DNA of 6,553 nucleotides from a virus (Duplodnaviria; Heunggongvirae; Uroviricota; Caudoviricetes). Below are positions 60-6,483 of this stretch, piece after piece. Position 1 is the stretch's first letter, and each line of letters begins with the position of its first letter. The position numbers and the translations under genes are program-made. Location of the stretch: the IMG/VR virus record IMGVR_UViG_2695420808_000003, one strand, 5' to 3'. The notes under the pieces were generated by a model. It did not search any database, was not told where the DNA came from, and was given only the letters and a program-made list of their open reading frames with translations.

Positions 60-1216
60 TTAACTGATCGGCATTACACCACCGGGACGCGGATTCATAT
101 CTTCCAGGTCGCGGCAGTCATTGGAAGAGTAAATTCCCCAGTTGATCCCGGTGGCGTAGGCTTCAAAACGGGACTTCATATCCCCGCGCAGTAACGCCCC
201 GGCGTTAAATTTGGCGTAATAAACGCCCTGCTTACTTTTTCGTACCAGTCCGGTGTTGATCCGCTGTTCGATGCGGGTCAGATACGGCACCAGTGAATAG
301 TTGATAAATCCCAGCCCCAGCTCTTCGATATTGTTGAAGGTGGCGCGATCGGTGTTCTGCACCATGTGCAACGGCACCCGGAACAGACGACAGATTTCTT
401 CCAGCTGAAACTTGCGGGTTTCCAGGAACTGACTGTCCTCGGCGTTCAGCGCCATCGACTTCCAGTCCAGCCCCATTTCCAGAATCATCGGGCGGTGAGC
501 ATTGCCAAGCCCCGTGTGACACTCCTCAAAATCTTTCTTCAGACGCTCGTAAGCATCCGGCGTGAGCTTTTGTTCCGTACGCAACACACCGGATGTCACC
601 GCACCATTACTAAACAACCTGGCACCGTGCTCCTCGGTTGCCGCTGCCAGTGAAATGGCCTCACGCGCATACGCAATGGGATTCAGCCCGACAAGTCCAT
701 CCAGCGTCAGGGTGCGCACATGCCAGATTTCATTCTGGGTCAACACATCCACGGAACCATCCGGAAACGTCACCTGATAAACCGGCTGCCACTGGCTGTT
801 CAGCTTCGGTTCCACACAGCCCGGATCTATCGGAAGAAGCTCCACCACTTCTCCCAGTGCCTTTACCTTGTAGGCGTAAAAATTCCCCCGTAGACACAGG
901 CAGACAATAACCAGCTCCCAGAATTCCTGCGGTGTCATGTAGCCATTAGGTTTTGCCGAAACCAACTTATGCAGTCGTTCATCCACCGCCCGTGTTTTCA
1001 GGGTACCGCTGATTTTGTAGAGACTGCAGGGCAGCATACCAACAGACTCTGCCAGCACCCTGACGCAAGAATAGACCGCCGTCAGGCGCATGGCCCGCTG
1101 GCTACTGATCCGCTTTCCGGTATAGGTGTCGTATGACAGCCCGATAGCATCAGCAGTTCTGCTGGCGTGGTCACCGGCACATCGCTTTTTCGTTGAAATA
1201 ATCCCGAAAAGAACAC
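60..1216 (-). CDS. Phage portal protein, HK97 family; 5' end uncertain or frameshifted
   Basis: Long minus-strand ORF (track 60..1307, 415 aa) carries the portal-core motif I recall from HK97-type portals (…ISSQRAMRLTAVYSCVRVLAESVGMLPCSLYK…) and a C-terminal region ending …RDLEDMNPRPGGVMPIS. It lies directly downstream of the large terminase, as in HK97-like head modules. The track start is a TTG at 1307 that overlaps the better-coding small ORF 1216..1398; the first in-frame ATG is at 1091. A GTG at 1216-1214 with a strong SD (GGAGGT, 5-nt spacer) overlaps the upstream stop (TAGTG) but is in another frame. Confidence 0.85.
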
Positions 1217-1398
1217 TATTTACCTCCGCCGACAGACTGCCGTGTACGGTCGAGATATCGCGCCACCAGCCACGACCAGAACAGGCACAGCGCCCCGGCA
1301 ACAACAAAACCCGCCGGGGGATAAATCAGCCAGGCACCATACGCCAGCAAAAGCGCACCCAGCACGCCCACCAGAGGCGCGAGAATCAGCATGATCAT
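1216..1398 (-). CDS. Small hypothetical membrane protein (60 aa, two predicted transmembrane helices)
   Basis: ATG at 1398 lies 11 nt after the terL stop and is preceded by a GAGGT Shine-Dalgarno (…CTGAGGTAATTATG). Product [60 protein letters not shown] has two hydrophobic helices and a basic C-terminal tail. Codons are E. coli-like (CTG, GCG, GGC rich), unlike the overlapping portal-frame codons. Confidence 0.5.
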
Positions 1399-1409
1399 AA
1401 TTACCTCAG

Positions 1410-3143
1410 TTAAAGCGAGCGGATCCCGTAGGACTCAATGTGGTCAGACAGCGTGTCTTCTTTCTCGTACAGCATGGCTCTGCCAACCGCCATAATCAGC
1501 GCAACTGCACCATCGATTTTGTTTTCCGCCTGCTCTTTGACGGGTTTCACCACATCATCGTTACCCGGCATGTTTTTGCCGACCACGTTGCCGATACACC
1601 AGGTCATGATGGGATTGCCGTCATGATGAAAACGTCCCGATTCAATCGCTGCTTCCAGCTCTTTCATCGGATCGGACATATTGGTGAAGTTCTGGACGAT
1701 AGTGACGGGATTCAGGTCTTCATCAGCAAGGTCATGTGACAACCCGGTCGCCCCGAAGGGGTCGATGGGTGACTCACTGACCGGGCTGATTTTGTTCGCC
1801 GCTTTGGCCTCCTCGAGGATGTAGCGATAATCCACCTCCGCACCATCGGTAACGGTCAGAACGCCCATTTCCACCCATTTCTGAAAGCGTTCGGCTGTCC
1901 GTCGATCTTCATTTTTCTCGACGCTGTACACCGTGTCATACGGTACCCAGAAACGCGGGGCCACACTGTAGTAATGCGTTTTACCGTCAATCTCGCGGGT
2001 ATAAAGTCGCGCCATGCTGTTCATATCCAGCTTACGCGCCAGGTCAAAGGCCAGAATGCACGGCTGCCCCTCGAACTGCTCAAGGGTCAGTGATTTATCC
2101 TCGCAGCTCTGCCAGCTCACCAAGTTGAAATACGCCGAACGCGCCGACACCCAGATATTGAGGTGTTTTGTTTTAAAGACGTTTGCCAGACGGGCGTTAT
2201 TTTTCGCACGCTGCTGCTGACTTAACAAAAATTCGCGATAAACCGACACGCCAATATTTGGATTGGCTTTTTCCAGCACCTGCGGGCCGGTCCAGTCGTC
2301 ACCTTCATCAACGGTATAGATGATCCCGAACAGTTCATCGTTAGGCACCGAGCCGTTGAGCATCTCGATGACTTCCCGCCGCTTGTCGTAGCACGGCCCC
2401 TCAATGTTGTACCCGGCGGTGGTGATGGCCCACATCAGTGGCTGACGTCGCGCCCCCATCCCGGTAAGCATTGTGGTATAAAGCGCATCGGTGGCATGCT
2501 CGTGATATTCATCAACCACGGCACAGTGGGGTGATGAACCATCACCTGGGTTGCCGATCAGCGGTTCAAACCGCGCGCCATCCTCCGGACGGTTCATGTT
2601 TGAGGCGTTAACCTCAATCCCGAACGCTTCCGTCAGCATGGGTGTGCGTTTACACATCAGTCGCGCCGGGCGAAAGACTTCCCACGCCTGTTTCTCTGTC
2701 GTGGCACCGGAATACACTTCCGCGCCAAACTCGTTATCACAGGCAAAACAATACAGGGCAACACCGGCAGAGATTGCTGATTTGCCGTTCTTACGGGGGA
2801 TTTCGGTGTACACCTCCCGGAAGCGGCGCAACCGGGTGCCTTTATTGACCCAGCCAAACGCACAGCAGATCACAAATAGCTGCCACGGCTCCAGCGTGAT
2901 GGGCATCCGTTTGAATGCCCACTCCCCCTTGGTGTGCGGCAACAGCTGAATAAATTTCGCGGCCCGTTCAGCCAGGTCCTTGTCGAAGCGGTAACGAAAC
3001 GACTTACTTTTTTCCGCCATCAGGTCATCAAGATGGCGCTGGCAGGCCTGAATCACAAACTGGCAGGCAACAATCTTTCCGCGCACGACATCCCGGGCAT
3101 ACTGATTTGCAGCATTTACGTTGGGGTAAGATTTCCGGCTCAT
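1410..3143 (-). CDS. Terminase large subunit (HK97 / Terminase_1-like ATPase-nuclease)
   Basis: 577-aa ORF with a Walker A-like motif (…[10 protein letters not shown]…) and a Walker B-like motif (…[10 protein letters not shown]…), followed by a C-terminal nuclease-like region. Its ATG overlaps the terS stop as ATGA (3143-3140), suggesting translational coupling. Sits between the small terminase and the portal. Confidence 0.93.
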
Positions 3144-3634
3144 GATTCGATAATTTTCAGAAACGGGTTAGTGGCTTTCTTCTGCCCCGCCAGGCCAATC
3201 AGACGCTGGCGGCTGCTGGGGTCGAGTCCGAGCATTGCCCCCGTGCTGCTCATCTCGGACTCCTGTTCTTTTTTGGCGGTCAGCTCCGGATTTTTGACCC
3301 TGCCGCCCATTGCACCGGTGATGGTGTTGCCCTGTATGGCAATATTTTTCACGGCACGTCGCCAGAACTCATAGGCCACGCACCACCGCTCAAGTACCGC
3401 CAGGTCAGTCACGCACAGCAGGCCCTGACCGCAGAGTTCTTTGGTTGTCAGTTGCCACATGATCGTGGCGAGAGGGAGATCTTCTTCAGCGAACCACTCT
3501 GGTGGCTCAACACCTTTGATGGGCGTAAAAACAGGTTCATCTTTGTTCAGGGCTCGCTTGCCGGGGTTTCCGGCCAGCGCCTTGCGCGCCGTTGGCTTGG
3601 GGCGACGCCCGGAACGCCCCGCCGTTCCAGCCAT
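3140..3634 (-). CDS. Terminase small subunit (P27-family-like)
   Basis: The N-terminus [27 protein letters not shown]… is the glycine/arginine-rich signature I recall for P27-family small terminases. The track ORF begins at GTG 3643, but the ATG at 3634 has an AGGAG Shine-Dalgarno 8 nt upstream and is the likelier start (164 aa). It lies immediately upstream of, and overlaps, terL. Confidence 0.82.
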
Positions 3635-4148: not shown

Positions 4149-4613
4149 CTACTTAATGCACTGAGTGCGGATATACTCCTGTGCCCCTTCCAGTTGCATC
4201 TGCATCGTCATCAGCCGCTCTCTGAGGGTGAAATAATCCCGTTCAGCGGTGTCTGCCAGTCGGGGGCTGGTTGCATTATCCACGCCGGAGGCGGTGGTGG
4301 CTTCACGCACTGACTGACAGACTGCTTTGATGTGCAACCGACGACGACCAGCGGCAACATCAGCGCGCAGAGTTTCATTTTCAGCTTTCGCATCAGCTAA
4401 CTCCTTCGTGTATTTAGCATCGAGTGCATTAACATCACGCTGTCTCTGCTGCATGTCAGTAATGGTTGCGTTCGCCAGCTTCAGTTCTCTTGCGTTTTTG
4501 TCGCGCTGCTCTTTGTAGGTAATGGCGTTATCACGGTAATGATTAACAGCCCATGACAGGCAGACGATGATGCAGATAACCAGAGCGGAGATAATCGCGG
4601 TGACTCTGCTCAT
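4149..4613 (-). CDS. Rz: Rz-like i-spanin
   Basis: Product has an N-terminal transmembrane segment ([23 protein letters not shown]) followed by a long charged, coiled-coil-like periplasmic domain. The ATG at 4613 overlaps the endolysin stop as ATGA; the track's GTG at 4625 would add only four residues. Rz1 is nested in the +1 frame. Closely resembles the Rz proteins of lambdoid/DLP12-type prophages as I recall them. Confidence 0.9.
4211..4393 (-). CDS. Rz1: Rz1-like o-spanin (outer-membrane lipoprotein), fully embedded in Rz
   Basis: 60-aa ORF entirely inside Rz in another frame. Signal peptide with lipobox LVVVGC, then a proline-rich stretch (…[21 protein letters not shown]…). This is the classic embedded Rz/Rz1 architecture. 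Confidence 0.85.
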
Positions 4614-5107
4614 TGCTGCCCCCACAAACAGACTTCACGCTCAATCTCACGACGGGTCATCAGCCCTTTCCATTGCTTACCGCCAGCATATGTCCAGCGA
4701 CGTAGCTGGTCACATGCGCCTTTGATATCGCCCTGGTTTATTTTGCGAAGAAGCGTCGATGTTCTGAAATTGCCAGCGCCCACGTTGTAAACGAACGAGT
4801 AAAGAGCGCCGCGCGTTGTTTCCGGTATATCGACTTTGATGTACGGGTTAATTTGTCTGGCGACAGTGGCAAGGTCTTTATTCAGGAGGGCTTTGCATTC
4901 TGCTTCGGTATACGTTTTACCGAGCATGATGTCTTTTCCGGTGTGTCCGTGACATACAGTCCATACACCAATGATATCTTTGTATAGTATGTAGCTGACA
5001 CCTTCCAGACCATCGTTACCACCTGGGCCAGTGATTAACACAGATGCTATAGCAACAGCCCCACCACCAATAGCAGCTGCAACAGCCTTGCGTAATGATG
5101 GCGACAT
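4610..5107 (-). CDS. R: SAR endolysin (T4-lysozyme-like muramidase, phage 21 R-type)
   Basis: 165 aa. N-terminal weakly hydrophobic Gly/Ala-rich SAR domain ([24 protein letters not shown]) followed by the lysozyme catalytic region (…[27 protein letters not shown]…, Glu-Asp-Thr triad pattern). Start ATG overlaps the holin stop (TAATG). Near-identical to phage 21 R as I recall it. Confidence 0.93.
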
Positions 5108-5322
5108 TATTCACCTCTCGCAGCCTTACGCTTGTCTTCTCTTATTTTGAAATACAGATTTGTCAGATAAGTCAGAAGCCCCAGAAGCAGACTTCCCAGC
5201 ACACCAATCGCAGCCCACTGTGATGGACTGACCTGATCCAACCACTGCAAAAACCAGTAGCCGGCACTGCCGGCGGAGGTGCCGTAGGCAATGCCTGTTG
5301 ATATTTTTTCCATCTGATACAT
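5107..5322 (-). CDS. S: Pinholin (phage 21 S-type class II holin) with dual-start motif
   Basis: 71 aa, [71 protein letters not shown]. Two transmembrane segments and a charged C-terminus. Met1 and Met4 could give the antiholin/holin pair. Sits immediately upstream of the SAR endolysin, as in phage 21 (S21-R21-Rz/Rz1). Confidence 0.92.
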
Positions 5323-6412: not shown

Positions 6413-6483
6413 NNNNNNNNNNNNNNNNNNNNNNNNNNNNNNNNNNNNNNNNNNNNNNNNNNNNNNNNNNNNNNNNNNNNNNN
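6413..6483. other. Assembly gap (71 N)
   Basis: Uninterrupted run of n characters in the sequence. Confidence 0.99.

Follow-up and report, generated by a model that had tools for sequence, protein, structure and literature searches.

The sequence analysed in this study, referred to as the window, comprises 6,553 nucleotides (nt) of the IMG/VR record IMGVR_UViG_2695420808_000003 (Caudoviricetes), and all positions given here are window positions. The recognisable genes of the window are all carried by the minus strand, and our subject is a small open reading frame (ORF) on that strand, between the gene for the large terminase subunit (terL) and an HK97-type portal gene. This ORF (1398-1216) starts with ATG, comprises 60 codons and ends with TAG, and its ATG is separated from the terL stop by a spacer of 11 nt (1399-1409). 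A first-pass annotation of the same DNA had pointed to the ATG, a GAGGT Shine-Dalgarno sequence and an 11-nt gap after terL; the sequence bears these signals out, on the minus strand, which the annotation had left unstated.

Judged by its similarity to known sequences, the small ORF is ymfR, the gene of PHROG 502, and has thus already been catalogued. Its product matched PHROG 502 ("membrane protein") over residues 1-55 with E=2.8e-28, and was 96.7% identical to K-12 YmfR, to SfII_03 and to Sb3 of phage ST64B. The DNA of the small ORF occurred in 1604 of the 5426 complete E. coli genomes, where the RefSeq label is 'ymfR: protein YmfR', and it also matched 23 phage records, including ST64B (Sb3), phiP27, SfI, SfII and 118970_sal3. 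In such phage records the homologues are labelled as (putative integral) membrane protein, and in some of them as 'head-tail joining protein W'. Searches of YmfR against Pfam (E<=0.1), NCBIfam and PADLOC gave nothing credible, and four members of the family gave 0 matches to the defence models of PADLOC. The searches with profile models that the first-pass annotation had proposed therefore led to the PHROG 502 identity, while its structural searches led to no specific relative: Foldseek of YmfR against PDB and BFVD returned generic helical hairpins only (E>1). The YmfR profile had 0 matches among PDB sequences.

A database search returned 167 homologues, nearly all of 60 amino acids (aa) and 58-97% identical, from Escherichia, Salmonella, Citrobacter, Yersinia, Hafnia, Klebsiella, Enterobacter and Buttiauxella. 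The ratio of nonsynonymous to synonymous substitution rates (dN/dS; Nei-Gojobori, 40 distinct coding sequences) was 0.07-0.26 in every divergence class. Such purifying selection answers the coding-frame check put forward in the first-pass annotation, and in >200 homologous loci the reading frame stayed open at a length of about 60 aa and showed purifying selection. The small ORF is a genuine protein-coding gene, far beyond chance. Residues P8, G11, G14, L18, G21, W23, Y26, G30, G35, C38, L39, W41 and S42 were invariant in the homologue alignment. The C-terminal GG was also invariant; it coincides with the Shine-Dalgarno sequence of the portal gene, and its invariance fits a constraint acting at the nucleotide level.

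Some individual copies deserve mention. In Shigella flexneri SFBU0723 a second copy of the locus has a disrupted small ORF, in which residues 27-60 align and no in-frame start is present, with flanking terL and portal genes that match over their full length. In K-12 e14, ymfR (3303-3485 of the locus) is intact, next to a terL without its N-terminus and a portal gene without its C-terminus; this could be chance, the gene being a small target, or retention by selection. Enterobacterial DNA of this kind also turned up under unrelated host names. The record OR844959 ('Enterococcus phage Efm 3-10', 1764 bp) contains terL-ymfR-portal DNA that is 95% identical, and a small protein 97% identical to that of the window was found in the 'Bacillota bacterium' metagenome-assembled genome (MAG) JAEWTL010000102 and in Edwardsiella hoshinae NBRC 105699. 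The JAEWTL010000102 MAG and the 'Enterococcus' record OR844959 are likely to reflect contamination or mis-binning.

YmfR was hydrophobic across residues 1-47, with a grand average of hydropathy (GRAVY) of +1.16 and a YPPAG turn at residues 26-30, and the K and R residues of the window's protein were confined to positions 47, 51, 53 and 60. An AlphaFold2 (AF2) model built from a 26-sequence alignment placed helices at residues 2-25 and 27-57, with a predicted local distance difference test (pLDDT) score of 72. The two hydrophobic helices noted by the first-pass annotation were thus recovered by hydropathy and by the model alike. YmfR is predicted to be a helical hairpin of the inner membrane, and its topology would probably be N-in/C-in. 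Counting charges by the positive-inside rule over 165 members of the family did not yield a clear signal for topology, the segment boundaries being crude and the turn often charged.

At its downstream end the small ORF meets the portal gene in a TAGTG overlap, preceded by a portal Shine-Dalgarno sequence within the final G-G-G-K codons of the small ORF (Table 1). The close spacing of terL, the small ORF and the portal gene, together with the stop/start overlap, implies translational coupling. GC content was 0.56-0.59 across the small ORF and 0.52-0.59 in its flanks. The overlap with a probable portal start noted in the first-pass annotation is real, and homologues use its GTG: the portal genes of K-12 e14 and SfII are annotated as starting there. 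One correction concerns the frame behind it, for the GTG-started frame of the window ends after 44 codons (ORF 1216-1082, TGA 1084-1082). The portal gene carries a 1-nt deletion after position 1155 (1154-1155, minus strand) and two nearby substitutions. At the deletion site, aligned with e14, ST64B and SfII, the relatives read GAGCTGGCGGAT and the window reads GAACTG-CTGAT, and the gap was unique to the window (1 of 59 distinct relatives). The remainder of the portal gene (1155-60, minus strand) continues in the frame of ORF 60-1307 and matched Pfam Phage_portal (PF04860) with E=3.3e-107. An ATG in frame with this remainder (MRLTAVY...) lies 8 nt before the premature TGA. The frameshift may reflect a defective prophage or a sequencing error.

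The same 59 close relatives also revealed a valley in third-codon-position diversity, which fell from 0.17-0.18 in terL to 0.02-0.04 over about 1155-1472 (~320 nt) and climbed again to 0.06-0.11 deeper in the portal gene. This low-diversity stretch covers the last 20 codons of terL, all of ymfR and the first 20 codons of the portal gene. RNA structure was considered as a cause of the low synonymous diversity and rejected, since folding of 1155-1472 (minus strand) gave z=+0.56 against shuffled sequences. The valley lies at the joints where terL, or the small ORF together with the portal gene, has been exchanged as a module (SfV, phi467), and a junction homogenised by recombination would be a plausible explanation.

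The position of the gene was examined in bacterial genomes, with one genome per species. Each of the 30 loci obtained kept the order HNH-terS-terL-small ORF-portal (terS, small terminase subunit). They range from Enterobacterales to Halomonadaceae, the latter being about 54% identical to the window in TerL, about 38% in the portal protein and 46-58% in the small protein. The stop of the small ORF overlapped the portal start, as TAGTG, TAATG or TGATG, at every genome-locus junction among those listed. The spacer after terL was 11-13 nt in most Enterobacterales loci, and the Halomonadaceae loci have a terL that runs into the small ORF.

A profile search of 1.84 billion cluster representatives (E<=1e-3) yielded 407 clusters at 50% identity, a lower bound on the size of the family, with almost all members 45-80 aa long. 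Distant members share the core D-x2-G-x2-GA-x-L-x-SYGAWLIY-x-PAG[FY]IV-x-G, and all those examined belonged to PHROG 502 and had no Pfam family. The few with organism names came from Burkholderiales, Alphaproteobacteria, Salinicola and Hafnia. For a viral set, a degenerate DNA pattern for YxPAGFIV was used, which retrieved 120 IMG/VR contigs with GC contents of 0.36-0.69; a family ORF was found in 102 of them, and 99 were analysable. An HK97-type portal ORF directly followed the family ORF on the same strand in 97 of these 99 viral loci, and the other 2 reach the contig edge. Among the 97, the overlap between the nearest in-frame portal start and the small ORF's stop was 1 nt in 50 loci and 4 nt in 20. 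On the upstream side, terL overlapped the small ORF in 38 viral loci and lay 2-14 nt away in 42. Larger gaps (53-2062 nt, 7 loci) all fell between terL and the small ORF; the gap between the small ORF and the portal gene was never more than 73 nt. The synteny check suggested in the first-pass annotation therefore came out in favour of a kept arrangement, both in the genome loci and, on the portal side, in the viral ones. Its premise that HK97-type packaging modules have no membrane protein is true of HK97 itself and untrue of this large group.

Two observations concern how the gene is recorded. The SfIV records KC814930 and NC_022749 carry no feature over their YmfR homologue. In Burkholderia phage vB_E173 (PV072767), an unannotated 61-codon ORF with two transmembrane (TM) segments (2299-2484) fills the 186-nt gap between terL and the portal gene and matched the family hidden Markov model (HMM) with E=1.6e-10.

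Across 93 distinct terL/small/portal triples, identity of the small protein followed identity of the portal protein with a Spearman correlation of 0.93 and a partial correlation of 0.77 given TerL, and the partial correlation of the small protein with TerL given the portal was 0.38, all of these being descriptive values from non-independent pairs. Two natural exchanges were in line with the correlations. SfV is 98% identical to the window in TerL and 28% in the portal protein, and it has a different hairpin subtype, while phi467-type phages have an unrelated terL, yet the same small ORF and portal. A two-helix ORF directly 5' of the portal gene was found in Vibrio K311, Burkholderia vB_E173, Klebsiella MC05, Vibrio Va_p41 and Pseudomonas PAJU2, and in PAJU2 this two-TM ORF precedes the portal gene though its upstream neighbour is not terL. 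On these comparisons of sequence and gene order, YmfR is inherited with the portal and not with terL. A hydrophobic N-terminus of the portal protein (MFFxGLF, MGLFxxL) was considered as a signature of the hairpin and rejected, as it also occurs in hairpin-less Oscillospiraceae and Streptococcus phages and is absent from the portals of Va_p41 and PAJU2, which have the hairpin.

The hairpin of SfV is encoded by an ORF of PHROG 7105 (NC_003444, 2289-2450), which is unannotated there. It is 53 aa long, has a pair of hydrophobic helices followed by a basic tail, overlaps terL in an ATGA and ends at the portal start. A PHROG 7105 ORF is also found in Klebsiella phage vB_VIPKPNMC05, where it is labelled hypothetical. 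Unlike YmfR, it is without the W-S-W and YPPAG signatures, and its partner portal is 28% identical. The two families gave reciprocal weak profile matches (SfV ORF against PHROG 502, E=5.7e-6; YmfR against PHROG 7105, E=0.022) with a low hhalign probability, and homology of PHROG 7105 and PHROG 502 is likely at this level of profile similarity. The SfV annotation leaves a 99-nt 'gap' between terL and the portal gene, with an annotated portal start (GTG 2392) that lies inside the hairpin ORF in another frame; the more likely portal start of SfV is GTG 2440, in front of which stands AGGGGGA.

The remaining features of the window are collected in Table 1. Apart from the small ORF, the window has a complete P21-type lysis cassette of holin, lysozyme, Rz and Rz1 at 4149-5322 (minus strand). 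The hydrophobic N-terminus of the lysozyme suggests a possible signal-anchor-release (SAR) endolysin. About 70 N at 6414-6483, near the right end of the window, represent masked sequence or a gap.

Table 1 Features of the 6,553-nt window, in the order in which they are met along the minus strand
Feature	Positions	Strand	Remarks
tRNA cluster	6312-6002	-	four consecutive genes: Met-cat, Arg-tct, Thr-tgt, Gly-tcc; upstream of lysis cassette
P21-type holin S, 71 aa	5322-5107	-	PF04971
Lysozyme	5107-4610	-	
Rz	4625-4149	-	
Rz1	4393-4211	-	embedded in Rz
HNH endonuclease	4106-3756	-	
terS	3643-3140	-	
terL	3143-1410	-	directly upstream of small ORF; Pfam TerL_ATPase and TerL_nuclease; stop TAA 1412-1410
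Shine-Dalgarno sequence of small ORF, GAGGT	1407-1403	-	inside terL/ymfR spacer; 4 nt before ATG
ymfR-family small ORF, 60 aa	1398-1216	-	PHROG 502, dN/dS, hydropathy, AF2
Portal Shine-Dalgarno sequence, GGAGGT	1227-1222	-	within final G-G-G-K codons of small ORF
TAGTG stop/start overlap	1218-1214	-	TAG 1218-1216 of small ORF and GTG 1216-1214 of portal gene
HK97-type portal gene, frameshifted	1216-60	-	Phage_portal, PF04860

The first-pass annotation had read the gene as a moron inserted into the packaging operon. A moron is an independent transcription unit that is sporadically present and often deviates in composition. A consensus scan of the minus strand at 900-1900 found no sigma-70-like promoter, and a scan for terminators on the minus strand around the small ORF found none; as a positive control, the same scan detected the terminator after the HK97 moron gp15. 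The SfII record annotates a 'putative rho-independent terminator' in the start of the ORF, and this candidate was rejected as non-functional: it was not flagged by the scan, it lies within conserved codons, and the portal gene would have to be transcribed through it. On sporadic presence the picture is mixed: terL and the portal gene adjoin each other in HK97, AH07 and Vibrio 1255, and within its own lineage the ORF is kept over very deep divergence and co-varies with the portal. With no promoter or terminator of its own, a GC content like that of its flanks, coupling on both sides and a constant position in divergent phages, the gene gives no support to the reading as an inserted moron.

We tentatively favour, at somewhat less than even confidence, a reading of YmfR as an inner-membrane factor that belongs to the head-assembly module, appears late and is coupled to the portal. 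According to this proposal, YmfR would insert into the inner membrane, probably with an N-in/C-in topology, and would be made late and in an amount tied to portal synthesis. It would then act with the portal during head morphogenesis, where it would most plausibly bring the portal ring or prohead initiator to the membrane or nucleate it there, possibly by way of a conserved host membrane machine. In T4, the portal initiator gp20 forms on the inner membrane with gp40 and the host YidC (PMC9958956, PMC4493910). This membrane-bound initiator would be a parallel in logic and not in sequence, gp40 being likewise a phage factor that enables the portal initiator at the inner membrane. A wider and somewhat more doubtful form of the proposal is that YmfR/PHROG 502 and sister families such as PHROG 7105 might be dedicated membrane partners of HK97-type portals, so that prohead initiation at the inner membrane would occur in a large share of the temperate phages of Proteobacteria, through a small phage protein that engages a conserved host membrane machine or assembles into an oligomeric ring. 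Such a step would have escaped notice since the gene does not occur in HK97, the model phage, and is frequently passed over in annotation.

Several points weigh against an assembly role. Four phages with related portals, namely HK97, Pantoea AH07, Vibrio 1255 and Moraxella Mcat17, lack the ORF; terL and the portal gene are adjacent in HK97, AH07 and Vibrio 1255 and overlap directly in HK97 and AH07. Since these phages manage without it, YmfR is accessory and not universal. The conserved part of the protein is the intramembrane hairpin with its turn, and the presumed cytoplasmic tails are short and variable, which leaves no obvious interface for a cytoplasmic portal. As for the T4 parallel, gp40 is an acidic protein of 114 aa that has no TM helix and is not encoded beside gene 20, and hhalign of YmfR against gp40 gave a probability of 0.07%, with no similarity. 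The dependence among the pairs behind the identity correlations belongs here as well, as does the literature, in which no paper found addresses the function of YmfR and ymfR is merely listed with e14. Beyond these points, the small ORF was absent from the three Gram-positive phages examined, and the region of Lactococcus phage r1t, viewed for a Gram-positive analogue with the Pfam family DUF1056 in mind, is arranged differently and was uninformative.

Four other explanations were weighed against a portal-coupled assembly factor. We consider it unlikely, although with points to recommend it, that YmfR is, as the first-pass annotation had suggested, a host-directed membrane effector (superinfection exclusion, abortive infection or toxin-like), which would act on the cell envelope in the manner of T4 Imm or HK97 gp15 and independently of head assembly. 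The small two-TM build with a basic tail resembles T4 Imm, the intramembrane core, the best-conserved part, has changed less than the portal between distant hosts, as would fit a conserved host membrane target, PHROGs places PHROG 502 in the class 'moron, auxiliary metabolic gene and host takeover', and ymfR has stayed intact in the decayed e14 beside truncated terL and portal genes. Against it, ymfR has neither its own promoter or terminator, where the same scan found that of HK97 gp15, nor a deviating composition. It is a late-operon gene coupled to terL and the portal gene, for which expression in the lysogen is not expected, and its position is invariant across very divergent phages. It also had no PADLOC match and no similarity to gp15 or Imm, and in K-12 the ymfR transcript is not constitutive but goes up alongside the other e14 genes under SOS-inducing treatment (PMC10012262). 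An improbable reading, in our judgement, is that of a holin, antiholin or lysis-timing modulator that links the completion of packaging to lysis. No holin family was matched in Pfam or PHROGs, a complete S/R/Rz/Rz1 cassette already stands at 4149-5322, and in every locus examined the gene is tied to the portal and not to the endolysin; what speaks for a lysis role is the layout of a class II holin, with two TM helices, a predicted N-in/C-in topology, a charged tail and about 60 aa, and the similar build of the window's own P21-type holin (71 aa).

On each side the gene is joined to its neighbour by a conserved stop/start overlap or a very short spacer, and this raises a different idea, namely that it serves mainly as a translational bridge by which ribosomes would be handed over from terL to the portal gene so as to set a low portal level, with a peptide of little importance. 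The portal Shine-Dalgarno sequence within the last codons of the ORF and the invariant C-terminal GG agree with it, as does the direct overlap of terL and the portal gene in HK97 and AH07. But the amino-acid sequence is under purifying selection, a specific motif is kept across 407 clusters, and a mere spacer would not remain a two-helix hydrophobic hairpin of constant length, and we regard a bridge of this kind as having little chance of being the chief role. Very improbable, finally, is a portal-proximal virion or ejection protein, present in few copies and inserted into the inner membrane of the recipient cell at DNA entry. Portal adjacency and coupling would suit a low-copy portal-associated component and hydrophobicity would suit membrane insertion, whereas a hydrophobic stretch of 47 residues would be hard to keep soluble in a capsid, no homologue was found among the chains of solved structures, and virion proteomics evidence for YmfR was not found.

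The gene was already known as YmfR and PHROG 502, and the window adds no new entity. What the analysis adds is context. The family is large and portal-locked, a long-standing partner of HK97-type portal genes in many phages and prophages of Proteobacteria; it evolves with the portal and not with terL, strongly conserves a motif inside the membrane, lacks a Pfam model and often goes unannotated. Should YmfR help to assemble the portal or prohead, head initiation at a membrane, for which T4 is so far the documented case, would be extended to HK97-type phages, and the presence of the gene in some 30% of complete E. coli genomes would be explained. If it is a late membrane effector instead, the strict coupling to the portal would need explaining.

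Compared with known systems, the small ORF shares its place with lambda gpW. In lambda the order is terL (A), gpW and portal (B), and gpW is a soluble protein of about 60-70 codons. The small ORF likewise lies between terL and the portal gene, but identity with gpW was rejected, as there was no Pfam gpW match (E<=0.1) and residues 1-47 are hydrophobic. The label 'head-tail joining protein W' carried by some YmfR homologues is therefore a mis-annotation by position. The class II holin P21 S resembles YmfR in architecture only, with two TM helices, a charged C-terminal tail and a length of 60-71 aa, and differs in that YmfR has no holin-family match and is not next to the endolysin. HK97 gp15 is also a small inner-membrane phage protein (62 aa), but it is a moron for superinfection exclusion that has a single TM helix, with a gap of 57 nt before its gene and a terminator of its own. 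T4 Imm (83 aa) has two TM helices and resides in the inner membrane, but belongs to an early gene and confers superinfection immunity; hhalign of YmfR against gp15 and against Imm gave probabilities <1%. With YmfR of e14 and Sb3 of ST64B the gene of the window shares its length, the 11-nt terL spacer and the TAGTG overlap, and it is the same gene, which in e14 stands between a terL and a portal gene that are both truncated and in the window stands before a portal gene that is frameshifted.

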